Sequence record: PZ445436.1
Direction: 5' to 3' (one strand)
Length of the DNA stretch: 64,000 nt
DNA from: a phage
Of the stretch, positions 25,348-56,600 are shown piece after piece; position 1 is the stretch's first letter, and the number at the start of each line of letters is the position of its first letter. Under the pieces are notes generated by a model. The model was given only the letters and a program-made list of their open reading frames with translations. It was not told the DNA's origin and made no database searches. The translations under genes and the position numbers were made by a program.

Positions 25348-25402
25348 TTCCTCATGTTATGCCAGTAAGACTACTATAACACAACACGAGGGACTTGTAA
25401 AC
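25348..25402 (-). repeat. 55-bp promoter cassette, copy 1 (near-identical copy at 41198-41252)
   Basis: tcctcatgttatgCcagtaagactactataacacaacacgagggacttgtaaac; one mismatch to copy 2. Confidence 0.9.
25373..25402 (-). promoter_or_regulatory. T4-type early promoter upstream of the alt.-3-like ORF
   Basis: Minus strand GTTTAC-N18-TATAGT with TGT immediately before the -10 (extended -10). Confidence 0.6.
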
Positions 25403-27459
25403 TACATTTTGAACTTTTTAGACATTCCGTTGATGTTAACCAAAGAAGCCAAGATTTGAGAAACTTCGTTTTCCTCTTCTTTTGATTCTTCTACAAGGAA
25501 TTGATTAAATCCAGCCATTGGACGAACTTCACCAGTTTCCATTAGATGGTCGCCATCATATACCGATTCCTCTAATTGTTCAGAAGGAGGAACGATTGTA
25601 CCTTCTATTAGATACTTGTTATAAGCAGTTTCTTTCATAAAGTACGTGCTCACTTTATTAATCTTCAGTAAAATTCCACGCGGTAGAATAACTTCAGCTT
25701 CTGATGGAAATCCTGATAAATGACCTGGAACGATAACTTTGATTCGCTCAGCTCCTTTAATTACCATACCCACGCTAGTTTCAGCATCTTCATTAGCATA
25801 TGTAGAATGACTACCCATATGCATCAAATCTTCTGCATCAACGGAACCTTCTCCTTCGCCAGAAAATACTGCGCCGGAATCATCTAGAGCCATATAGTTT
25901 TTACCGTGCTCACCGAAAATATTTGGTTTAAGCGATGTGGATACGAAGTTCTTGAAATAGAACATTTTGTTTTCAATATTATGACGCAAAGTTTTAAAGG
26001 TAACTTCTTGTCCACGGTAAAGTGTAGTTCCTGGAGGAAGAACTGAACCTTTAGCGAATGCAGAATCAAGCGTCTCAATATGTTTAATAGCTCGTTCCAT
26101 ATATTCTTCACGGGTAGAATCTGGTTTACCCAAAAGGAACGAGTTCATTTCAACATATGAATCTGCACAATAATCTTCAATTACATCAGATTCAGCTTGA
26201 GTTAATCCTTTTGGAGTTACTTCGGTGCTTGCGTATTCATATGCCTGAGCGGCAGATTCATTAATCAATTTATAAATGCCATTCATTACAAATTGAATAA
26301 TAGCTGTCTTTTCATCTGGCGTAGCTTTAGAACCTTTAACCAAATCATTGATAATTTTCTTAATAACATCAAAGCTATTAGAAATATTAATGTCAGCAAG
26401 ATCGCTTAAAATTTTATCAGTTTTATAATCAAAGAATTCTTTATTCTTTAAATATTCTTGAGAACCTTGATATGCTATATCGCTCTGCAACTTGATAGAT
26501 GGATCACGTAAACGTGCATGGGCTAATGCAATATGATTTCGGAAGTTTTCTAGTTCGTAATCGCTAGATTTAAAACGAGAAGCACTTCTCATACCACCAA
26601 TAGCTCCTTTGCTGAAGTTTGAACCAATCTGAATAACGCCAGAGTTCATTGGTCCTTCTGCTTTATACACCGGAACTTTAGATTCAAACTCTTGATATTT
26701 CTTAGCAGCGAAGCTATCACCCTGAAGTGAAGCATCGACAGTAGAATATTGAGCTTGTGCTGCTAATCGACGACTAATTTTAGTTTTCTGAATAACAGCT
26801 TGATCAGTGCGCTTATCATTTTCTAAAGCAATAGAAGCAGCAACAGCGACAGCTTTAGGAACAGCATTACCTGTTTTAACGTCTACATAAACATCACCAA
26901 CCTTTGATTCAACTTTTGTGAATAACTCAGTTGAAATAGGAGGTACACCTGGAATGTCTTCTAAATTGGCATTTTTACGGTAAACCATAATATATGCATA
27001 TTTCTTATCATAGTCCCAGATTTCCTTTAAAAGAACATATCGACCTGCTCCTTTAGTACGTACTAAACGGTCAGCAATAACTTGCATTTGACGAGCAGCG
27101 CCATTTGTTTTACTCTTTAGTACGCGGAATAGGCATGCGTCGATTTTATACTGTTTCATTGTTTGAAGAGCAGTATCAAAAACGGCATTAATGACGCCAA
27201 TTGGATTTCCACCCAAGTTTCTAAGCTTGACTAACGATAATTTCTCGTTGACACCTATCATTACGATATGCATCATTTTGTCGCCTGGCTTAACGTTTTT
27301 ATTCGTATCACCGCCAGAGGTGTATGTACAAAATCTAAATCCAGGAAGAACGCTTTCTTCACCGGCTTGAATAGCAAAAATTTGTGGTATTTTATGCTTA
27401 GGATTTAAGTTAACAACCGGCGCCGAAGCGCCGTCAAATAATTCTGTAATAAGTTCCAT
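25402..27459 (-). CDS. Alt-type ADP-ribosyltransferase paralog (685 aa)
   Basis: N-terminus MELITELFD shared with the upstream Alt; C-terminal ART signature YRGQ / FVSTS / EAEVILPRG (R-S-ExE); ATG 3 nt after the upstream stop with AAGGA SD. Confidence 0.85.
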   Translation of the reverse strand: MELITELFDGASAPVVNLNPKHKIPQIFAIQAGEESVLPGFRFCTYTSGGDTNKNVKPGDKMMHIVMIGVNEKLSLVKLRNLGGNPIGVINAVFDTALQTMKQYKIDACLFRVLKSKTNGAARQMQVIADRLVRTKGAGRYVLLKEIWDYDKKYAYIMVYRKNANLEDIPGVPPISTELFTKVESKVGDVYVDVKTGNAVPKAVAVAASIALENDKRTDQAVIQKTKISRRLAAQAQYSTVDASLQGDSFAAKKYQEFESKVPVYKAEGPMNSGVIQIGSNFSKGAIGGMRSASRFKSSDYELENFRNHIALAHARLRDPSIKLQSDIAYQGSQEYLKNKEFFDYKTDKILSDLADINISNSFDVIKKIINDLVKGSKATPDEKTAIIQFVMNGIYKLINESAAQAYEYASTEVTPKGLTQAESDVIEDYCADSYVEMNSFLLGKPDSTREEYMERAIKHIETLDSAFAKGSVLPPGTTLYRGQEVTFKTLRHNIENKMFYFKNFVSTSLKPNIFGEHGKNYMALDDSGAVFSGEGEGSVDAEDLMHMGSHSTYANEDAETSVGMVIKGAERIKVIVPGHLSGFPSEAEVILPRGILLKINKVSTYFMKETAYNKYLIEGTIVPPSEQLEESVYDGDHLMETGEVRPMAGFNQFLVEESKEEENEVSQILASLVNINGMSKKFKM

Positions 27460-33907: not shown

Positions 33908-33944
33908 TTTTGTTCTCCGAGATGTTTAATTGCGGTACAGGTAT

Positions 33945-33973
33945 ATAATATCATATCCTGTACCAAAGTAAAC
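33945..33973 (-). promoter_or_regulatory. T4-type early promoter upstream of the 121-aa ORF
   Basis: Minus strand GTTTAC-N17-TATTAT with TGA before -10; flanked by 8-bp inverted repeat GGTACAGG/CCTGTACC. Confidence 0.55.
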
Positions 33974-34308: not shown

Positions 34309-34335
34309 TTTATTCTCCTTTGTTTGTGTAAGATA

Positions 34336-34365
34336 ATACTATCACAAAGGAACCATACTGTAAAC
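34336..34365 (-). promoter_or_regulatory. T4-type early promoter upstream of the 110-aa ORF
   Basis: Minus strand GTTTAC-N18-TAGTAT with TGA before -10; lies just after a terminator. Confidence 0.5.
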
Positions 34366-34394
34366 AACTTTGTGCAATCTTTGGAAAATAAAAA

Positions 34395-34414
34395 AGGACT
34401 CCCGAAGGAGTCCT
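34395..34414 (-). terminator. Intrinsic terminator after the 30.9-like ORF
   Basis: AGGACUCC-UUCG-GGAGUCCU hairpin followed on minus strand by UUUUUUAUUUU. Confidence 0.7.
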
Positions 34415-34418
34415 CAAC

Positions 34419-37132: not shown

Positions 37133-37365
37133 AGTACGCCATACACCCTTTGTGCTTCAACTAATCCATCAAAATCCAATTTAAGATGCGATATTTGATC
37201 GCCATCGCCTGGATTCACAATTACTAATACTGAACGAGGAGTTTCGGTAATAACACGAACCGATGTTTCAGGAAATCGTTCAGAAACCTTATTTACTAAT
37301 TCCTGCGCAAATAGTTTAACTTTTTCTTGGAATTCTTTAACAGTAATTGGTTTTTCACTTAGCAT
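37129..37365 (-). CDS. Hypothetical protein (cd.x cluster)
   Basis: 78-aa ORF. Confidence 0.55.
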   Translation of the reverse strand: MLSEKPITVKEFQEKVKLFAQELVNKVSERFPETSVRVITETPRSVLVIVNPGDGDQISHLKLDFDGLVEAQRVYGVL

Positions 37366-37886
37366 GTTGATCCCAGCTCCTTACTTTCAACATTTTTAAC
37401 TAATTTGACAGAAACTAATTCAGCATCTTGAGTAATCATTACCGGACCTTCTTCATACTCTTCAAGATATTCTAGAGCTTTCTTTTTAGCTTCTTCCTTC
37501 GTATCAGTTTGAGCATAGATATAAAACATACAACCAGTAATACCTACTACTTTCCACTTAATTTCTTTATCAGCTTTAATTTCAAATTTACTGACAGAAT
37601 CATCTTTTTGAACTTCTTCGAAAAAAGAATATTCTAACATATAAGCAATTGAAAATAACGGGCTATCTTTATAGGATTCGCCCATTACATCAATAGCTTT
37701 ATACCAACAGTCATCAATTTCGCGTTTAATGCTAATAACATTCTTTGCAGGGTCAATTTTTACTTTAAATAAATTTTCCCCAATAAACTGGGCAATTCGT
37801 TTATTAGCCCCGCAAGTTTCATTAAAAATATCTTTATACCCAGTTTTAAAGCGATAAACCTTATCTTCTTCAAACCATTCGCTCAT
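37359..37886 (-). CDS. Hypothetical protein (cd.x cluster)
   Basis: 175-aa ORF preceded by early promoter. Confidence 0.6.
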   Translation of the reverse strand: MSEWFEEDKVYRFKTGYKDIFNETCGANKRIAQFIGENLFKVKIDPAKNVISIKREIDDCWYKAIDVMGESYKDSPLFSIAYMLEYSFFEEVQKDDSVSKFEIKADKEIKWKVVGITGCMFYIYAQTDTKEEAKKKALEYLEEYEEGPVMITQDAELVSVKLVKNVESKELGSTC

Positions 37887-37916
37887 TTCAATTTCCTCAT
37901 TTGTTTTGGTAGAGCT

Positions 37917-37946
37917 ATAATATCACAACTCTACCGTAAAGTAAAC
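37917..37946 (-). promoter_or_regulatory. T4-type early promoter upstream of the 175-aa cd.x ORF
   Basis: Minus strand GTTTAC-N18-TATTAT with TGA before -10; 7-bp inverted repeat GGTAGAG/CTCTACC around -10. Confidence 0.55.
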
Positions 37947-37948
37947 CA

Positions 37949-38224
37949 TTAAATCGCTTTGAATTCCGCAGTTTGAGATTCAAAGCGAATGTCGCCTTTG
38001 ATAACTAGCTCAGCATCAAGACCGAATACGACAATGATATGTGCTGAACCTGGATACAACGTAATTGCAATAGAATCCACCTGGCCTGGAAGCAAAGTAT
38101 TCAATACATGAGTCACTTGAGCATGAATTCGAAGCTCAGCTGCGTTATCAAGCTTTTCAAACATATTATTAGCAATAATTTGACTAAACACTACTTCTAC
38201 GATTTTAGAATAAGTCGGAAACAT
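37949..38224 (-). CDS. Hypothetical protein (cd.x cluster)
   Basis: 91-aa ORF. Confidence 0.55.
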   Translation of the reverse strand: MFPTYSKIVEVVFSQIIANNMFEKLDNAAELRIHAQVTHVLNTLLPGQVDSIAITLYPGSAHIIVVFGLDAELVIKGDIRFESQTAEFKAI

Positions 38225-38427: not shown

Positions 38428-39820
<1,393 letters not shown>

Positions 39821-39824
<4 letters not shown>

Positions 39825-41197: not shown

Positions 41198-41252
41198 GTC
41201 CTCATGTTATGTCAGTAAGACTACTATAACACAACACGAGGGACTTGTAAAC
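41198..41252 (-). repeat. 55-bp promoter cassette, copy 2
   Basis: tcctcatgttatgTcagtaagactactataacacaacacgagggacttgtaaac. Confidence 0.9.
41223..41252 (-). promoter_or_regulatory. T4-type early promoter upstream of alc
   Basis: Identical core to the 25373-25402 promoter. Confidence 0.6.
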
Positions 41253-42870: not shown

Positions 42871-44049
42871 TTAAAAATATTTTTTAAAACTCATCATAAC
42901 TTTATCATCAACATCATTATCAATCTGTGCAACAAGGTAAGATGACAGTTCTACTTCTTGTGGCGCGGATTGAACATTATCAGAATTAAGATATTCACGA
43001 ATCCAAGGATACGGATGTTTAACCGGAGCATCAGTAATTGGGCACGGAAGACCACACTGTTTCATACGAGATACAGTTAAGTAATCAATAAAGCTCCACA
43101 TGCTATTTGTATTTAATCCAGGAACATCGCCATCTTTAAATAAATGAACTGCCCAATCTTTTTCTTGGCGGTTAACTTCCATGAAAATATCAACTGCTTC
43201 TTGTTCACACTCTTTGGCAATTTTAACCCATTCATCACCATCCGTGCCAAGTTGAAGTTGACGAATAATATATTGTGTACCTTTAAGATGAAGCTGCTCA
43301 TCACGTGCAATGAACTTCATAATCTTGGCATTACCTTCCATGATTTCCATGTTCTTATGGAAGTTAAAGGTACATGCGAAAGATACATAAAAACGAATAG
43401 CTTCCAATGCGTTGATTACATGCAGACAAAGGTAAAGAGAACGCATTAGTTCGTATTTGCATTCTTCTACATGCATAAGGCTATTTGAATATGCGTCCAA
43501 ATCATATTCATTCTCTGAAAAACACCTAAAAATTTCTTTTGCGTTTTCCCATTCACGAGTTTTCTCAATAACATCATCATAATAACGACCAATAGATTCA
43601 GCACGTTTCATGATAGCTTTATCTAATACAATCTCATCAAATACCTTTGACGGGTCAGTATAAAGATTTCGCATAATATGAGTGTATGAACGGCTGTGAA
43701 TAGTTTCACTAAAAGTCCATGTAGCAACCCATGTATCAAGGCTTGGGTCTGAAATTAATGACATAAGTACAGCAGACGGTGCACGACCCTGAATGCTATC
43801 TAGAAGTGATTGATACTTCAGGTTATTAGTAAAAATATCTTGCTGATACTGAGGAAGCTTGTTAAATTGTGCAGCATCCATCATCAAGTTTACTTCTTCA
43901 GGACGCCAGAAAAATGACAATTGCTTTTCGGTTAAATCTTCAAAAACTTTATGGCGTTGAATATCATAACGCGCAATACCAAGACCTGAACCGAAGAACA
44001 TAGGTTCTTTTAAAACATCAACTGGATTTGTATTAAAAACTGTGCTCAT
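42871..44049 (-). CDS. nrdB: Ribonucleotide reductase small subunit, uninterrupted
   Basis: 392-aa contiguous ORF. Confidence 0.9.
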   Translation of the reverse strand: MSTVFNTNPVDVLKEPMFFGSGLGIARYDIQRHKVFEDLTEKQLSFFWRPEEVNLMMDAAQFNKLPQYQQDIFTNNLKYQSLLDSIQGRAPSAVLMSLISDPSLDTWVATWTFSETIHSRSYTHIMRNLYTDPSKVFDEIVLDKAIMKRAESIGRYYDDVIEKTREWENAKEIFRCFSENEYDLDAYSNSLMHVEECKYELMRSLYLCLHVINALEAIRFYVSFACTFNFHKNMEIMEGNAKIMKFIARDEQLHLKGTQYIIRQLQLGTDGDEWVKIAKECEQEAVDIFMEVNRQEKDWAVHLFKDGDVPGLNTNSMWSFIDYLTVSRMKQCGLPCPITDAPVKHPYPWIREYLNSDNVQSAPQEVELSSYLVAQIDNDVDDKVMMSFKKYF

Positions 44050-44100
44050 AAATTTTCCGCTTAGTTAATAGATAGTGACTCGTCCATGAGTCAAATTATA

Positions 44101-46365
44101 TCATAATTTACAGGATGAACAATCTTCAGCTTTTGGAGTTTCTATTTCATAATCATCAGTACCAGAACCGTCACGTGTATTATGATAATAGAAATTTTTT
44201 CCGCCAAAATACCAAAAATACAAAAGGTCATCAATCATTATTGACATTGGAACCTTGCCTTTAGGGAAGATTTGGGGGTCATAGTATGTATTCGCCGAAG
44301 CTGATTGACAAACCCATTTCAGCATAATAGCTACCTGCGTAAGATAAGGTTTATTACCTTTCTTAGCTAATTTCCATGTATAGTCGTAAAGGTCTATGTT
44401 ATGCTCAATATTGGGCACGACCTGATTAAAGGAGCCCTCTTTTGATTCTTTAACAGAGACTGGTCCACGTGGAGGCTCGATACCGTTTGTACTGTTAGAA
44501 ACTTGGGAAGATGACTCACATGGCATAAGTGCTGATAATGTACTATTACGGATGCCAAAGAGCTTAAGGTCTTCCCGCAGCGCCGACCAGTCACAAACGT
44601 ATTTTGGAGCTGCGATTTGGTCAATCTTTTTATTGTACCAGTCGATAGGTAATTCGCCTCGAGACCAACGAGTGTCTGAATAATATTCGCAAGGTCCTTT
44701 TTCTTTGGCGAGCTTAATGGATGCTTTAATGAGTCCATACTGTAATCTCTCAAATAGTTCATGTGTTAAATCGTTAGCATCTTCATAAGAAGCAAAGTTA
44801 CTTGCCAGCCAAGCTGCATAGTTAGTAACACCTACACCGAGGTTACGACGCTTTTTAGCTTTTTCTGCTTCAGGAACTGGATATCCTTGGTAATCCAAAA
44901 GATTATCAAGAGCACGAACTTGAACTTCTGCTAATTCATTAATTTTATCTTGGTCTTGCCAATCGAAGTTATCCAGCACAAATGCAGATAACGTGCACAA
45001 TCCAATTTCAGCATCGGGGCTATTCACATCATTTGTTGGAATAGCAATTTCACAGCACAAGTTACTCTGACGAATAGGTGCCTTTTCACGAATAAATGGA
45101 GTATAGTTATTCGTATTATCAATGAACTGTACATAAATCCTTGCTGTTCCTGAACGTTCAGTCATGAGCAATTCAAATAGTTCACGGGCTTTAATACGCT
45201 TTTTACGAATATTAGGGTCTTTTTCTGCTGCTTCGTATAATTCACGGAAACGGTCTTGGTCTTTAAAATAAGAATAATAAAGCTCTCCACCCATTTCATG
45301 TGGACTGAACAAAGTAATGTAATCGTTCTTTCCAAAACGTTCCATCATCAAATCATTCAGCTGAACACCATAATCCATATGACGAATGCGGTTTTCTTCT
45401 ACGCCTTTGTTATTTTTCAAAACGAGAAGATTTTCAACTTCCAAATGCCAAATAGGATAATAAGCAGTAGCAGCGCCGCCACGAATTCCACCCTGTGAAC
45501 ATGATTTAACTGCAGTCTGAAAATGTTTCCAAAAAGGAATAACACCGGTATGGCGTACTTCACCCATGCCAATCTTAGAACCTTCGGCACGAATCATACC
45601 AACGTTAATACCAATTCCAGCGCGTTTAGAGATATATTCAACAATTGAAGCGGAAGCCTTATTGATAGACTTTAATGAATCACCTGCCTCAATAACAACA
45701 CATGAACTAAACTGTCGAGTCGGAGTACGGCAACCAGCCATAATAGGAGTTGGCAGTGAAATCTGTCGAGTAGATACCGCTTCATAAAAACGGATAACAT
45801 GTTTTAATCTATCAACAGGTTCATCTTGATGCAATGCCATTCCAATAGTCATAAATGCAAACTGTGGAGTTTCATAAATTTGACCAGTGGTTTTATCTTT
45901 AACTAAATATTTTTCTTTTAATTGCATCGCCCCGGAATAAGTAAATTCCATATCCCGTTCGTGCTTAATTTTTGATTCTAAAAATGTAATTTCTTCTGCT
46001 GAATATTTTGACAATAATTCAGGGTCATATTTACCTTCATTTACACAGTAAGAAATATGGTCAATAAATGAACGTGGTTCATACTGCCCATAAACATGCT
46101 TACGAAGAGCAAACATTAAACAGCGTGCAGCTACGTATTGATAATCAGGCTCTTCAACTGAAATAGAATTCGCAGCAGCCTTAATTACAATGGTTTGAAT
46201 GTCATCAGTGGTCATTCCATCACGGAGATATGATTTAATATTTTCATATAATTCATAAGGATCTACTGATGTTCCCTCAGCTGCCCAAGATAAAACTTTA
46301 ATAATTTTTTGTGGGTCAAAGCTCTGAGAAACACCACTACTTTTGATAACATTAATTAATTGCAT
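44101..46365 (-). CDS. nrdA: Ribonucleotide reductase large subunit
   Basis: 754-aa ORF, length as T4 NrdA. Confidence 0.95.
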   Translation of the reverse strand: MQLINVIKSSGVSQSFDPQKIIKVLSWAAEGTSVDPYELYENIKSYLRDGMTTDDIQTIVIKAAANSISVEEPDYQYVAARCLMFALRKHVYGQYEPRSFIDHISYCVNEGKYDPELLSKYSAEEITFLESKIKHERDMEFTYSGAMQLKEKYLVKDKTTGQIYETPQFAFMTIGMALHQDEPVDRLKHVIRFYEAVSTRQISLPTPIMAGCRTPTRQFSSCVVIEAGDSLKSINKASASIVEYISKRAGIGINVGMIRAEGSKIGMGEVRHTGVIPFWKHFQTAVKSCSQGGIRGGAATAYYPIWHLEVENLLVLKNNKGVEENRIRHMDYGVQLNDLMMERFGKNDYITLFSPHEMGGELYYSYFKDQDRFRELYEAAEKDPNIRKKRIKARELFELLMTERSGTARIYVQFIDNTNNYTPFIREKAPIRQSNLCCEIAIPTNDVNSPDAEIGLCTLSAFVLDNFDWQDQDKINELAEVQVRALDNLLDYQGYPVPEAEKAKKRRNLGVGVTNYAAWLASNFASYEDANDLTHELFERLQYGLIKASIKLAKEKGPCEYYSDTRWSRGELPIDWYNKKIDQIAAPKYVCDWSALREDLKLFGIRNSTLSALMPCESSSQVSNSTNGIEPPRGPVSVKESKEGSFNQVVPNIEHNIDLYDYTWKLAKKGNKPYLTQVAIMLKWVCQSASANTYYDPQIFPKGKVPMSIMIDDLLYFWYFGGKNFYYHNTRDGSGTDDYEIETPKAEDCSSCKL

Positions 46366-46899: not shown

Positions 46900-47756
46900 A
46901 TTGCCATTTTCCCTTTAATTGCTGGATGCGATTCATAATTTTCAAGGATAAAATCTTTCGGTTTCATGTATTCAGTTAACCAGTAAAGCTGTGTTTCGGT
47001 GTCACAATTTTCAAACTCTATAGGCCAATCAATTTTAAGTTCACACAGTTCTTTAGGCTCACGACGTAAAATTTCTTTACATTGCTCAGTATGATTCATA
47101 TAGATGTGAGTATTACCACCAGAAAATATCAAATCTCCTGGGATAAGATTACACATCTTAGCCACAATATGCGTCAAGGCAGCGTACGAGGCAATGTTGA
47201 ACGGCAAACCCAAGAAAACATCTACACTTCTTTGGTACCATTGTAAATCAAGATAACCATTACGCACATTAAACTGATAGAACATATGACAGGGCGGTAA
47301 TGCCATTTGATTGATTTCAGCTGGATTCCATGCTGAAACGATTTGACGTCGATCAGTTGGTAATTTTTTAATACGATCAATAGTTTCAACTAATTGATCC
47401 ACACCACCGAAATCACGCCATTGTTTACCGTATATAGGACCAAGTTCACCACTATGATATCCTAGGTCTTTAGCTTGGTTTTCATAATTGTCATCCCAGA
47501 TAGTTTTACCTTGAATAAGACTACCGTGAGTAAGAAGACGTAAATCATTAACATTGGTAGAACCGGAAATAAACCATAAAAGCTCAGCAATGCATGCATT
47601 CCAGGCGAGCTTCTTAGTTGTTACTGCAGGAAAACCTTTAGTTAAATCCCAGCGTAATTTAGTACCGAACAAAGCAATTGTTCCTGTGCCCGTTCGGTCA
47701 TCGGTTTCATAGCCATTTTCAAAAATGTCTTTAATTAAATCTTGGTATTGTTTCAT
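46896..47756 (-). CDS. td: Thymidylate synthase, uninterrupted
   Basis: 286-aa contiguous ORF with active-site PPCH motif. Confidence 0.95.
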
Positions 47757-47801: not shown

Positions 47802-48149
47802 TCAATACGGTTTAGCATCAAATTTTCTCTCAATTTCAGGTGTGAAATATAATTCTTTACCGCGTTTGGAAAAGCGACCAATAATATGATAATTATTCTC
47901 ATCAAACGTAATATTACCAATATCCATAGCTTTCAACCAAATATCGATATTTCTATCCAGCTTTATGTCAAAATTCCAATACGGAGAACTATTACCGAAA
48001 ATACTGCAAGCGGATTCAGTGAAACAACTGCTATAAATCTTGTCTTTAGGAACTACTAATTGATAGACACCTTTAATAAACTGAGGACCTTGCCATTTTG
48101 GCTGTTTCGTGTCTTTTTCTAATAGAATAGGGTAATAATTAAAATTCAT
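47802..48149 (-). CDS. Hypothetical protein inserted between frd and td
   Basis: 115-aa ORF with ATG start, 19 nt downstream of the frd stop; no recognisable motif. Confidence 0.6.
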   Translation of the reverse strand: MNFNYYPILLEKDTKQPKWQGPQFIKGVYQLVVPKDKIYSSCFTESACSIFGNSSPYWNFDIKLDRNIDIWLKAMDIGNITFDENNYHIIGRFSKRGKELYFTPEIERKFDAKPY

Positions 48150-49241: not shown

Positions 49242-49267
49242 TTTATTCTCCTCAAGTTGATAAGGCT

Positions 49268-49297
49268 ATAGTATCATTACCATAGCCCGTTGTAAAC
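49268..49297 (-). promoter_or_regulatory. T4-type early promoter upstream of the 80-aa frd.x ORF
   Basis: Minus strand GTTTAC-N18-TACTAT with TGA before -10. Confidence 0.5.
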
Positions 49298-49299
49298 AA

Positions 49300-49560
49300 T
49301 TATTTTTGAATTTTATCGAGCCACTTACCAAGCTTAATCATTTCTTTAGTAGCCTTTTCCATACTTCTGAACTTGACCAATAGAGGATAGGTATCGACAC
49401 CCATAACTAAACTGGTTACAAGACTGTGTTCACCCACAAGCCATAACGAATACGTTTGAATATCGAGCCCGTAATTTCTGTCTTTATGGACCCGTACACC
49501 CATCACTTCAAATTTCTCACTAGCTTTTTCTACCGCATCCAGGAAATCATCTTTAGTCAT
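49300..49560 (-). CDS. Hypothetical protein (frd.x cluster)
   Basis: Start placed at internal ATG (MTKDDFLDAV, AAGG SD, 1 nt after upstream stop), 86 aa. Confidence 0.5.
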   Translation of the reverse strand: MTKDDFLDAVEKASEKFEVMGVRVHKDRNYGLDIQTYSLWLVGEHSLVTSLVMGVDTYPLLVKFRSMEKATKEMIKLGKWLDKIQK

Positions 49561-49561
49561 A

Positions 49562-49942
49562 TTAGGCCTTAAAAGTTTTTCGCAAAAGTTCAATGATTTC
49601 ATCTACATTGTTTTCGTCAACAATGCAGTGAATTTTTGTTACGCCAGAAACCTTGTCTTTGACTTCATCTTCTTCAGAAGTCGGTTCTTTATACTCACGA
49701 AAACAATGAAATTCATCTTCGCAAATTTCTAAAAGTCTATCTTTGAGGTAAAAATGCTTTCCATTTGCGCATTCAATGTGTTTTACTGCTTTATATCCAT
49801 TAGCGACGGAAACTTCTTTAACTTCAAACCATCCGCCATTATCTCGAATAGCTTTAACGATTGATGAATTAGAACGTGGGCTATAATTAATAAATGTATC
49901 AATAAGTCTTGGAACAAGTTCATACTTTTTGCCAATATACAT
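49562..49942 (-). CDS. Hypothetical Cys/His-containing protein
   Basis: 126-aa ORF; HIECANGKH ... CEDEFHCF ... HC suggests possible metal binding. Confidence 0.55.
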   Translation of the reverse strand: MYIGKKYELVPRLIDTFINYSPRSNSSIVKAIRDNGGWFEVKEVSVANGYKAVKHIECANGKHFYLKDRLLEICEDEFHCFREYKEPTSEEDEVKDKVSGVTKIHCIVDENNVDEIIELLRKTFKA

Positions 49943-50256: not shown

Positions 50257-50286
50257 ATAGTACCATGGAAGGACAAGGATGTAAAC
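50257..50286 (-). promoter_or_regulatory. T4-type early promoter upstream of the 75-aa ORF
   Basis: Minus strand GTTTAC-N18-TACTAT with TGG before -10; just downstream of the gene 32 terminator. Confidence 0.5.
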
Positions 50287-51268: not shown

Positions 51269-51342
51269 TTTTATTTCCTTTTTAATTTAATTAACAGTTG
51301 GTGCTATGACGATGTATGACCTCATAGCTGGTCAGTGAGATA
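51269..51342 (-). promoter_or_regulatory. Gene 32 5' leader / autogenous translational operator region
   Basis: Leader ends ...UUAAUUAAAUUAAAAAGGAAAUAAAAUG; in T4 gp32 binds this unstructured A/U-rich region next to a pseudoknot. Confidence 0.5.
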
Positions 51343-51367
51343 ATTATAATCTATTTATAATAAGCAA
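51343..51367 (-). promoter_or_regulatory. Possible middle-type promoter for gene 32 (imperfect MotA box)
   Basis: Minus strand TTGCTTA ... TATAAT; overlaps a TATAAATA motif. Confidence 0.3.
51352..51359 (-). promoter_or_regulatory. Possible late promoter for gene 32
   Basis: Plus TATTTATA about 85 nt upstream of the gene 32 start. Confidence 0.45.
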
Positions 51368-53529: not shown

Positions 53530-53558
53530 ATGAACCTCGTTCAATTAGTGAGATTTTT

Positions 53559-53588
53559 ATTATATACCATCCAAATCTTAAAGTAAAC
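53559..53588 (-). promoter_or_regulatory. T4-type early promoter upstream of rnh
   Basis: Minus strand GTTTAC-N18-TATAAT (TGGTATATAAT). Confidence 0.55.
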
Positions 53589-53633: not shown

Positions 53634-56600
53634 ATGGCCGAGATTAAAAGAAAGTTCAGAGCAGAAGATGGTCTGGACGCAGGTGGTGATAAAATAATCA
53701 ACGTAGCTTTAGCTGATCGTGCCGTAGGAACTGACGGTGTTAACGTTGATTACTTAATTCAAGAAAACACAGTTCAACAATATGATCCAACTCGTGGATA
53801 TTTAAAAGATTTTGTAATCATTTATGATAACCGCTTTTGGGCTGCTATAAATGATATTCCAAAACCGGCAGGAGCTTTTAATAGCGGACGCTGGAGAGCA
53901 TTACGTACCGATGCTAACTGGATTACGGTTTCATCTGGTTCATATCAATTAAAATCTGGTGAAGCTATTTCGGTTAACACCGCAGCTGGTAATGATATTA
54001 CATTTACTTTACCATCTACCCCAATTGACGGTGATACTATCGTTCTCCAAGATATTGGAGGAAAACCTGGAGTTAACCAAGTTTTAATTGTAGCTCCGGT
54101 GCAAAGTATTGTAAACTTCAGAGGTCAACAGGTACGTTCAGTACTAATGACTCATCCAAAGTCACAGCTAGTTTTAATTTTTAGTAATCGTCTGTGGCAA
54201 ATGTATGTTGCTGATTATAGTAGAGAAGCTATAGTTGTAACACCAGCAAGTCTCTATCAGGCGCAATCTAATGATTTTATCGTACGTAGATTTACTTCTG
54301 CTGCACCAATTAATGTTAAACTTCCAAGATTTGCTAATCATGGCGATATTATTAATTTCGTTGATTTAGATAAACTGAATCCACTTTATCATACAATTGT
54401 TACTACATACGATGAAACGACTTCAGTACAAGAAGTTGGAACTCATTCCATTGAAGGCCGTACATCAATTGACGGTTTCTTGATGTTTGATGATAATGAG
54501 AAATTGTGGAGATTGTTTGACGGGGATAGTAAAGCACGTTTACGCATTATAACGACTAATTCTAATATTCGTCCAAACGAAGAAGTCATGGTATTTGGTG
54601 CGAATAACGGAACAACTCAAACAATTGAACTTCAGCTTCCAACTAATATTTCTGTTGGTGATACTGTTAAAATTTCCATGAATTACATGAGAAAAGGACA
54701 AACAGTTAAAATCAAAGCTGCCGGTGAAGATAAAATTGCTTCTTCAGTTCAATTGCTGCAATTCCCAAAACGTTCAGAATATCCACCTGAAACTAAATGG
54801 GTGACTGTTCAAGAATTAGTTTTTAACGGTGAAACTAATTATGTTCCAGTTTTGCAACTTGCTTACATAGAAGATTCTGATGGAAAATATTGGGTTGTGC
54901 AACAAAATGTTCCAACTGTAGAAAGAGTCGATTCTTTAAATGATTCTACTAGAGCAAGATTAGGCGTAATTGCTTTAGCTACACAAGCTCAAGCTAATGT
55001 CGATTTAGAAAATTCTCCACAAAAAGAATTAGCAATTACTCCAGAAACATTAGCTAACCGTACTGCTACTGAAACTCGCAGAGGTATTGCAAGAATAGCA
55101 ACTACTGCTCAAGTGAATCAGAACACCACATTCTCTTTTGCTGATGATATTATCATCACTCCTAAAAAGCTGAATGAAAGAACTGCTACAGAAACTCGCA
55201 GAGGTGTCGCAGAAATTGCTACGCAGCAAGAAACTAATGCAGGAACCGATGACACTACAATCATCACTCCTAAAAAGCTTCAAGCTCGTCAAGGTTCTGA
55301 ATCATTATCTGGTATTGTAACTTTTGTATCTACTGCAGGTGCTACTCCAGCTTCTAGCCGTGAATTAAATGGTACGAATGTTTATAATAAAAACACTAAT
55401 AATTTAGTTGTTTCGCCAAAAGCTTTGGATCAGTATAAAGCTACGCCTACTCAACAGGGTGCAGTAATTTTAGCCGTTGAAAGTGAAGTAATTGCTGGAC
55501 AAAGCCAAGAAGGATGGGCAAATGCTGTTGTAACGCCAGAAACGTTACACAAAAAGACATCAACTGATGCAAGAATTGGTTTAATTGAAATTGCTACGCA
55601 AAGTGAAGTTAATACAGGAACTGATTATACTCGTGCAGTCACTCCTAAAACTTTAAATGACCGTAGAGCAACTGAAAGTTTAAGTGGTATAGCTGAAATT
55701 GCTACGCAAGTTGAATTCGACGCAGGCGTCGACGATACTCGTATCTCTACACCATTAAAAATTAAAACCAGATTTAATAGTACTGATCGTACTTCTGTTG
55801 TTGCTCTATCTGGATTAGTTGAATCAGGAACTCTCTGGGACCATTATACCCTTAATATTCTTGAAGCAAATGAGACACAGCGTGGTACACTTCGTGTAGC
55901 TACACAGGTTGAAGCTGCTGCAGGAACATTAGATAATGTTTTAATAACTCCTAAAAAGCTTTTAGGTACTAAATCTACTGAAGCACAGGAAGGTGTTATT
56001 AAAGTTGCAACTCAAGCTGAAACCGTAGCTGGAACATCAGCAAATACTGCTGTATCTCCAAAAAATTTAAAATGGATTGTCCAGTCTGAACCAACATGGG
56101 CTGCTACTACGGCGATTCGTGGATTCGTTAAAACTTCATCCGGTTCTATTACATTTGTTGGTAATGATACAGTTGGTTCAACACAACCTTTAGAATCATA
56201 TGAGAAAAATAGCTATGCAGTATCACCATATGAATTAAACCGTGTACTTGCTAACTATTTGCCATTGAAAGCTAAAGCCGTAGATAGTAATTTATTAGAT
56301 GGCCTAGATTCATCTCAGTTCATTCGTAGGGACATTGCACAGACGGTTAATGGTTCACTAACCTTAACACAACAAACGAATCTGAGTGCCCCTCTCGTAT
56401 CATCTAGTACTGCTACGTTTGGTGGTTCAGTTTCGGCAAATAGTACATTAACTATTTCTAATACTGGAACGGCAACTCGTCTGATTTTTGAGAAAGGACC
56501 TCAAACTGGAACTAACCCAGCGCAGACGATGACTATTAGAGTTTGGGGAAATCAGTTTGGTGGTGGATCAGATACAACACGTTCTACTGTATTTGAAGTT

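Follow-up and report, generated by a model that had tools for sequence, protein, structure and literature searches.

Inverted repeats bracketing the -10 element of T4-type early promoters as candidate promoter-embedded stem-loops in a Tequatrovirus segment

Inverted repeats at the early promoters

The window analyzed here, a 64,000-nucleotide (nt) stretch of phage DNA (PZ445436.1), is a Tequatrovirus (T4-like) segment with 97% identity to phages SCS4 and ECML-134. Its gene order runs from baseplate genes through alt, 30, cd, pseT, nrdAB, td, frd, 32 and rnh to gene 34, and its list of open reading frames (ORFs) places the early genes on the minus strand. At most of the early promoters on that strand, including the focal promoter at 37917-37946, a perfect inverted repeat brackets the -10 element. 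Such repeats are confirmed as strongly non-random at early promoters, and comparison of orthologues indicates that the arms are held complementary by selection. We propose, at roughly even odds (probability about 0.5), that the repeats form stem-loops embedded in the promoters and belong with the PeSLs (promoter-early stem-loops, in which an early promoter is combined with a stem-loop); these hairpins would exist only in read-through RNA and would mark that RNA off, with insulation of the downstream gene as the preferred effect.

A sequence-only reading of the window had listed eight minus-strand GTTTAC-N17/18-TAnnnT sites upstream of early genes, and an exact pattern scan found every one of them where it had been placed. 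They are named below by the first base of the -35 element: 25402, 33973, 34365, 37946 (the focal promoter), 41252, 49297, 50286 and 53588. All eight match the T4-type early (sigma-70) promoter pattern, with GTTTAC as the -35 element and 17 or 18 nt to TAnnnT; they also have an A/T-rich, UP-like upstream region and, 20-40 nt downstream, the Shine-Dalgarno sequence and start codon of an early-strand gene. The TG said to stand just before the -10 element is present, as a TGn extended -10, at seven of the eight, while at 53559-53588 only an alternative -10 register supplies it. With spacers of 16-19 nt the core occurs 10 times in the window against 3.4 expected, a count reached in no shuffle, and nine of these ten matches lie on the minus strand, namely the eight listed sites and one at 54087-54116. 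The inverted repeats quoted in the same reading were all present at the correct coordinates. Two of them call for correction: GTTAT/ATAAC in the two copies of a promoter cassette has a true Watson-Crick length of 6 bp (TGTTAT/ATAACA), and TTTGTG/CACAAA within 34323-34348 is an alternative pairing to the longer repeat TCCTTTGT/ACAAAGGA. The repeat at 50257-50286 is indeed only 4 bp long. Arm sequences differ between promoters, so the repeats are not copies of one element, as had been recognized.

Each promoter was scored by its longest perfect inverted repeat with a loop of 3-20 nt that takes in the -10 centre, and the scores were compared with 1000 controls in which spacers and leaders were shuffled or left and right halves were joined across different promoters. 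In the window, a repeat of at least 6 bp was found at seven of eight promoters, compared with about 0.7 in shuffles and about 1.0 with swapped halves, and 0 of 1000 controls reached seven of eight. The T4 records NC_000866 and AF158101 lack promoter features, so T4 promoters were predicted by the exact pattern; removal of six intragenic or antisense matches left 36. Repeats of at least 6 bp occurred at 16 of these 36 (expected 2.7-3.3) and of at least 7 bp at 11 (expected about 0.75), again with 0 of 1000 controls, and the longest T4 arms measured 14, 14, 10 and 10 bp. When the scoring position was offset along the T4 promoters, a sharp peak of 16 promoters stood at the -10 element over a background of 0-3, with a second bump near -66 whose source is upstream terminators. 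Equal frequency of such repeats around random TAnnnT sites, an outcome that the sequence-only reading had named as a refutation, was not found: random TAnnnT sites carried at least 6 bp in 10-11% of cases and at least 7 bp in 3.7-3.8%, as against 7/8 in the window and 16/36 in T4. Sites matching TGnTAnnnT behaved alike, and MotA-type sites showed no enrichment (at least 6 bp in 5-6%). A wider scan, allowing loops of up to 45 nt, covered 69 distinct promoters of T4, the window, one Mosigvirus, one Dhakavirus and one Moonvirus; it found repeats of at least 7 bp at 27 (expected 3.9), at least 8 bp at 17 (expected 1.1) and at least 10 bp at 10 (expected 0.2).

The focal promoter

The focal early promoter lies on the minus strand, as do all features described below, between cd.3 and the next gene. 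Its -35 element GTTTAC occupies 37946-37941, TGn and the -10 element TATTAT follow (-10 at 37922-37917), and +1 is predicted near 37910. It is the orthologue of the T4 early promoter Pe133295, named in a note in the T4 GenBank record. The embedded stem-loop spans 37908-37935, with Watson-Crick arms GGTAGAG (37935-37929) and CTCTACC (37914-37908). Folded as sense RNA, the site gives a 12-bp helix with three G·U pairs closed by an AUAU loop, GGUAGAGUUGUG-AUAU-UAUAGCUCUACC, at -16.3 kcal/mol (z = -4.6). The antisense RNA reaches -9.2 kcal/mol (z = -2.2) and single-stranded DNA -5.0 kcal/mol (z = -1.6); the inner third of the helix depends on G·U pairs.

In phage SA21RB (OL960580.1, 131765-131794), the focal orthologue carries two labels, T4-like early promoter and rho-independent terminator (WebGeSTer), which shows that terminator finders mislabel embedded hairpins. 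At the cd.3/cd.2 junction of Gaprivervirus MN01, a promoter with a spacer-internal stem, CACCA-cgga-TGGTG, takes the place of the -10-bracketing stem; in Jiaodavirus, Kanagawavirus and Tegunavirus this junction has no promoter and the genes abut or overlap.

The T4 record also notes that 133300-133313 (AF158101) is the inverted complement of an earlier sequence, a change that "corrects the early promoter Pe133295". By coordinate arithmetic, this segment coincides exactly with the 14-nt loop that the 7-bp arms of the focal hairpin enclose, and a loop-flipped version of the site matches the old T4 record X03007 (2293-2345) over all 53 nt. The remaining 418 matches to the flipped query are the native hairpin read from the opposite strand. 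An invertible -10 switch was considered and rejected, as the native orientation was found in all four relatives fetched (Sf22, EPIMRB01, FL33 and SA21RB) and in the other genomes inspected. The flip in X03007 is probably an artefact of cloning or sequencing to which the inverted repeat contributed.

Conservation and covariation of the arms

Orthologues were taken from GenBank phage records; scans of IMG/VR gave five close relatives each. Among Tequatrovirus members, bases change in the loops and flanks of the focal, 30.7-type and rnh promoters but not in their arms. At the rnh promoter, for example, loop bases differ in PYps11T and BCPEco_001 and the arms are kept. Over all eight promoters in Tequatrovirus, 11 of 102 arm columns are variable compared with 85 of 310 other non-box promoter columns (P = 4e-4), the latter class being somewhat inflated by one indel; columns of the promoter boxes are never variable.

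Beyond the genus, the arms change together. The focal arms, GGTAGAG/CTCTACC in Tequatrovirus, are GGTAGGACT/AGTCCTACC in Dhakavirus WG01, with two base pairs changed on both sides, GTAGAGTT/AACTCTAC in Mosigvirus SF, and GGTGGAGTT/AACTCTACC, with an internal G·T, in Mosigviruses TH12, ST2 and p000v. Across nine distinct focal orthologues from three genera, 98.1% of cells pair in the 12-bp helix, compared with 35-61% when the partner is slid by 1-3 columns; in this small sample the shuffle counts of 3-5 in 500 are to be read as counts and not as probabilities. Two pairs in this alignment are double-changed (A-U to G-C and G-C to A-U), and four one-sided changes pass via G·U, not A·C. Other promoters behave similarly. 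The 30.7-type stem grows from 8 bp to 11-12 bp in Mosigvirus and Dhakavirus. The frd.2-region promoter (orthologues of 49297) has GGCTAT/ATAGCC in the window, AGGGTA/TACCCT in T4 and RB51, ATAGGGT/ACCCTAT in PYps11T and GTTGATAGGGTA/TACCCTATCAAC in Moon, and the motB-type stem is GGGACCA/TGGTCCC in T4 and GGAGCA/TGCTCC in SF and WG01. Loss of the dyads in orthologous promoters of close relatives, which the sequence-only reading had named as a reason to abandon the idea, was not seen in the orthologues compared: arms were kept or changed in compensatory fashion. A family-wide covariation model with a single register was dropped because registers differ between promoters.

Strand and geometry of the predicted hairpins

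Across the 36 T4 promoters, the segment from the spacer to +14 folds to a mean of -10.3 kcal/mol as sense RNA (z = -2.5; 19 promoters below -2), -7.9 as antisense RNA (sense vs antisense P = 0.001) and -4.8 with DNA parameters. We regard this predicted asymmetry between strands as supportive rather than decisive. Among the 27 repeats of at least 7 bp found at the 69 promoters, left arms lie at about -30 to -16, and right arms fall at -6 to +9 in 18 and over the Shine-Dalgarno sequence in 8. Placed at the usual sigma-70 distance, the predicted +1 lies within the 3' arm or immediately behind it. Stem register varies (the paired-position sum has a mode of 51 and a range of 45-70), and spacer-internal stems occur too; this variability fits a need for a hairpin anywhere in the few unconstrained bases of a 60-nt intergenic gap.

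Two geometries can be distinguished in the window. At four of the eight promoters (focal, 33973, 49297 and 53588), the stem brackets the -10 element and its 3' arm ends at +3 to +5, which is 5-12 nt before the Shine-Dalgarno sequence; the latter is not sequestered at these sites and its predicted accessibility is unchanged. At three others (25402, 41252 and 34365; class B), the 3' arm covers the Shine-Dalgarno sequence. Elsewhere, the 3' arm covers the Shine-Dalgarno sequence at several T4, Dhakavirus and Moonvirus promoters, with long perfect arms at T4 regB and at Moon 28378 (13 bp).

Proposed role in read-through RNA

What follows on the position of +1, on RNA folding in vivo and on all functional consequences is what we infer from these observations. 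Only two parts of a T4 early promoter are unconstrained, the spacer (about -30 to -16) and the discriminator with the first transcribed bases (about -6 to +9), and in roughly half of the promoters the two are maintained as mutual complements. Because the predicted +1 lies in or after the 3' arm, a polymerase starting at the promoter would make a transcript that lacks the 5' arm and cannot fold. RNA that reads through from an upstream promoter would hold both arms and form the hairpin, lengthened on the sense strand by G·U pairs through TGn and the -10 element, and with the predicted start inside the 3' arm the hairpin would be confined to such transcripts. Insulation would follow if the hairpin made read-through RNA a poorer source of downstream gene expression and left that gene reliant on its own early promoter. 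For class B, the means may be direct occlusion of the Shine-Dalgarno sequence, as T4 does with late promoters at e, soc, 49 and I-TevI. For the -10-bracketing class, it may be a stable helix a few bases upstream of the ribosome-binding site, or polymerase pausing or attenuation. Of the three mechanisms that the sequence-only reading had offered (a protein-binding dyad, a cruciform-prone element or a hairpin in read-through transcripts), the last is favored by the predicted +1 in the 3' arm, by changes that are G·U-tolerant and compensatory, and by sense RNA folding best.

Several points weigh against this reading. About half of the early promoters have no such hairpin, and +1 is assumed from the usual sigma-70 spacing. 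The folding advantage of the sense strand is due in part to TGn/-10 bases that promoter function fixes anyway; just outside the stems, G·T occurs 9 times and A·C 7 times, and the bias further in is accounted for by the same conserved TG/-10 bases. Predicted accessibility of the Shine-Dalgarno and start region is 0.46 in read-through RNA against 0.59 in the transcript from the promoter's own start, yet shuffled spacers give 0.45. General Shine-Dalgarno occlusion was thus rejected and kept for one subclass, and a translational effect of the -10-bracketing class is unsupported by folding because accessibility is the same as with shuffled spacers. Pairing of the spacer with the Shine-Dalgarno sequence, seen at 11 of 36 T4 promoters, is not clearly above composition-preserving shuffles (7.8). 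The association with terminators, finally, is a trend with P of about 0.07-0.14: promoters directly after a strong canonical terminator have an embedded hairpin in 1 of 8 cases, compared with 23 of 55 others, and a mean fold of -5.4 vs -10.1 kcal/mol. A first crude terminator detector gave no association and a stricter one gave this trend, which fits a role tied to read-through RNA and is not significant. The sole window promoter without a hairpin, 50286, has a hairpin and T-run motif (…cctagaggtcccctttttttatttc…) directly upstream, and at its T4 orthologue GGGGACC-ctaga-GGTCCCC followed by a T-run passed the terminator criteria, making it one of the eight terminator-preceded promoters.

A broader version, in which the hairpins are a general timing device that silences or destabilizes read-through copies and strictly limits expression of about half of the early genes to the brief period in which their own promoters fire, we consider improbable. 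If it were true, RNA structure at the promoters, and not a protein factor, would encode part of the abrupt drop in early protein synthesis that has long gone unexplained. On the narrower proposal that the hairpin forms only in read-through RNA, promoter-initiated and read-through transcripts would differ in structure at nearly every second early gene, a testable rule. Few bacterial promoters are as strong or as well studied as the T4 early promoters, which serve as models and parts. With arms held complementary by selection at about half of them, the spacer and first transcribed bases are constrained sequence, a point of importance for promoter engineering and genome annotation.

Alternative explanations

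The stem-loops could instead be terminators or attenuators of the upstream gene that thin read-through polymerases at the next promoter and have no translational role. One RB49 PeSL stem-loop cut expression of a downstream lacZ about as much as rrnB T1 (PMC2839356), the automated SA21RB annotation places a rho-independent terminator inside the focal-orthologue promoter, and embedded hairpins tend to be missing where a canonical terminator precedes the promoter. Set against this, no T-run follows any embedded hairpin (downstream sequences include AAAACAAA, GCAATTAA and ATCAAAAC), a consensus terminator scan called the terminator at 34394-34415 and none of the embedded hairpins, and polymerase would be released only once past the promoter. 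We give such a function far less weight than our main reading. We place at a similar level a role in DNA, in which hairpins act during replication or recombination as crossover or template-switch sites and make promoter-plus-gene cassettes exchangeable, the modular shuffling proposed for PeSLs. Three of about ten breakpoints of indels between the window and T4 in the early region (25421, 37884 and 49252) lie within 30 nt of early promoters; these are counts only, and breakpoints so placed are what PeSL shuffling would predict. The inversion of exactly the 14-nt focal loop in X03007 is likewise the kind of product expected of template switching or recombination between the arms. The breakpoints, however, fall at the Shine-Dalgarno/start region and not in loops, the focal hairpin is weak as single-stranded DNA, the inner third of its helix exists only through G·U pairs, one-sided substitutions in orthologues run via G·U and not A·C, and conservation of the arms within lineages is hard to explain by selection for evolvability. 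Cruciform extrusion, the second of the mechanisms first offered, is unlikely with arms of 6-8 bp, loops of 12-16 nt and a single-stranded DNA fold of only -5 kcal/mol (z = -1.6).

Slightly less probable, in our estimate, is a neutral by-product: quasi-palindrome-templated mutation, for which T4-type replication is known and which turns imperfect inverted repeats into perfect ones, could work on the few free bases around the partly self-complementary TGn/-10 sequence, create dyads and mimic compensation without any function. Quasi-palindrome template-switch mutagenesis was reportedly first shown in T4 rIIB. A stem register that is not fixed and clusters on the -10 element would be natural on this account, as would the enrichment of transition-type mismatches, G·T and A·C alike, at stem ends, which decay and repair of pairs predicts. 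It sits poorly with arms that vary significantly less than neighboring unconstrained promoter positions, with retention of the hairpin by the same promoter over three genera despite diverging flanks, with MotA-type promoter-like sites that have a -10 element and show no enrichment, and with spacer-to-Shine-Dalgarno stems (11-13 bp, loops of 21-31 nt) that are centered on no palindromic seed. A dyad bound by a dimeric protein, such as a factor that shuts off early promoters minutes after infection, would overlap the -10 element where a repressor would act, and early-promoter shut-off has been called "not completely understood" (PMC3014915). We nevertheless consider a sequence-specific protein site very unlikely, and largely refuted by the lack of shared sequence. 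The 27 distinct stems share neither a half-site consensus nor a fixed position, and from promoter to promoter they vary in arm length (6-14 bp), loop (8-20 nt) and register; the dyad is missing from about half of the early promoters, and compensatory change keeps pairing and not sequence.

Other promoters and features of the window

The early promoter upstream of a 30.7-type gene spans 33934-33973 (-35 at 33973-33968, -10 at 33950-33945), and its 8-bp arms, GGTACAGG (33964-33957) and CCTGTACC (33941-33934), bracket the -10 element; its RNA fold is -19.4 kcal/mol. The class B promoter at 34316-34365 (-35 at 34365-34360, -10 at 34341-34336) has its spacer arm at 34351-34344 and its 3' arm at 34323-34316, over the Shine-Dalgarno sequence of the downstream gene. 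A canonical intrinsic terminator, GAGGACTCC-TTCG-GGAGTCCTT followed by a T-run, lies upstream of it at 34394-34415. At 49264-49297 (-35 at 49297-49292, -10 at 49273-49268), the arms GGCTAT (49287-49282) and ATAGCC (49269-49264) give an RNA fold of -14.7 kcal/mol. The promoter upstream of rnh, at 53551-53588 (-35 at 53588-53583, -10 at 53564-53559), has arms AGATTT (53578-53573) and AAATCT (53556-53551) and the weakest hairpin of the set, at -5.8 kcal/mol. The promoter upstream of the leader genes of gene 32, at 50257-50286, is the one without an embedded hairpin.

The promoter cassette is present in two near-identical copies, one upstream of an alt.-3-like gene at 25350-25402 (-35 at 25402-25397, -10 at 25378-25373; class B, with the TGTTAT/ATAACA repeat) and one upstream of rnlA at 41200-41252 (-35 at 41252-41247, -10 at 41228-41223), with a spacer-to-Shine-Dalgarno helix like that of the first. 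In both, the RNA folds into a -22 kcal/mol helix in which the spacer CCTCGTGTTGTGT pairs with CATAACATGAGG, the latter containing the Shine-Dalgarno sequence. T4 carries both copies too (at 123093 and 136336).

Directly upstream of the focal -35 element, at the 3' end of cd.3, a separate 11-bp perfect hairpin occupies 37954-37988 (TCGCTTTGAAT/ATTCAAAGCGA, 13-nt loop) and is of the PeSL type with a stem-loop just upstream of the promoter. It is partly decayed in relatives, with a T·G position. The ninth minus-strand core match, at 54087-54116, is a perfect GTTTAC-N18-TACAAT, without a dyad, that runs antisense within the 5' portion of gene 34. It is kept in T4 (151291) and in Shigella phage A2, and may serve as an additional promoter directed at rnh or as an antisense promoter.

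Several T4 elements are absent from the window, namely the introns of nrdB and td (with I-TevIII and I-TevI), mobE and segG, with differences at 43373-43376, 44049-44105, 47204-47207 and 51331-51367; the window in turn has small ORFs at 39522-39824 and 47802-48149 that are additional relative to T4. At 25421, the alt paralogue region differs from T4. An extra ORF of 175 amino acids (37359-37886) directly follows the focal promoter, accounting for the difference at 37364-37884; there, the window and T4 are homologous up to and including the Shine-Dalgarno sequence and cease to be so at the start codon. The segment after the 49297 promoter, 49252-49569, is replaced relative to T4.

Comparison with known systems

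The sequence-only reading knew of no description of such repeats at T4 early promoters. In fact, PeSLs with stems overlapping the -10 element are already described in RB49/phi1 (PMC2839356), and the part of the claim that stands is that the -10-bracketing class in Tequatrovirus seems unreported in the literature consulted; the dyads are not mentioned in the T4 transcription review or in a five-genome promoter survey. Arbiol et al. (2010) defined PeSLs in the T4-type phages RB49/phi1 as an early promoter with a stem-loop, mostly between the -35 and -10 elements or overlapping the -10, the full range of positions being upstream, between -35 and -10, overlapping -35 or -10, and downstream of -10; they suggested that the stem-loops work as terminators or attenuators and as sites of recombination, and assayed one of them with lacZ (PMC2839356). 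PeSLs were later described for PST/T4 and nt-1/KVP40 by Comeau et al. (2014), who place the PST/T4 stems just upstream of the promoter, as AGGA…TCCT terminator-like hairpins (PMC4122927). Our scan applied to RB49 recovers both PeSL classes, with GGGGGTA-GTAATA-TACCCCC and a spacer-internal GGGGATC…GATCCCC, and a stem spans the -10 element, one of the described positions, in 7/8 window and 16/36 T4 promoters. Like PeSLs, the elements reported here lie in short intergenic gaps and consist of a strong early promoter of sigma-70 type, with AT-rich sequence upstream of it, and a stem-loop, followed by a Shine-Dalgarno sequence and start codon. Unlike the RB49 stems, which are typically G-run/C-run, those here are mixed in sequence and different at every promoter, and unlike the published T4/PST stems they bracket the -10 element.

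The elements also resemble the hairpins of T4 e, soc, 49 and I-TevI, where transcription from a late promoter within the hairpin leaves the ribosome-binding site exposed (PMC3014915), and that of Aeh1 mobE. In each, the 5' arm lies upstream of an internal start, so that long read-through RNA folds and promoter-proximal RNA does not; our left arms, at about -30 to -16, have the same relation to the predicted +1. Coverage of the Shine-Dalgarno sequence by the 3' arm is shared at 25402, 41252 and 34365, whereas at the focal site and three others it is uncovered and its predicted accessibility not reduced. In the known T4 inhibitory hairpins the internal promoter is a late one, and late genes are thereby kept silent in early RNA; the internal promoters described here are early ones. 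Intrinsic terminators share with these elements a stable intergenic RNA hairpin, and the SA21RB annotation labels the focal hairpin as one; the embedded hairpins differ in having no U-tract after the stem, large Watson-Crick loops and the -10 element inside the hairpin. A short inverted repeat at a promoter is also found in the hairpin promoters of phage N4 virion RNA polymerase. Those promoters have 5-7 bp stems and 3-nt loops, are extruded in DNA and are read by the phage polymerase. The promoters here are ordinary sigma-70 promoters whose -10 element lies in the loop, and for them extrusion in DNA is implausible on energetic grounds.

These results do not amount to a new kind of element; the kind is already known from RB49. 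The sections seen of the PeSL papers hold no enrichment statistics, covariation, strand asymmetry or class that sequesters the Shine-Dalgarno sequence (PMC2839356, PMC4122927). What seems to be added here are the Tequatrovirus -10-bracketing and Shine-Dalgarno-covering classes, together with the statistical and covariation support with which the PeSL idea is extended from RB49 to T4 proper.

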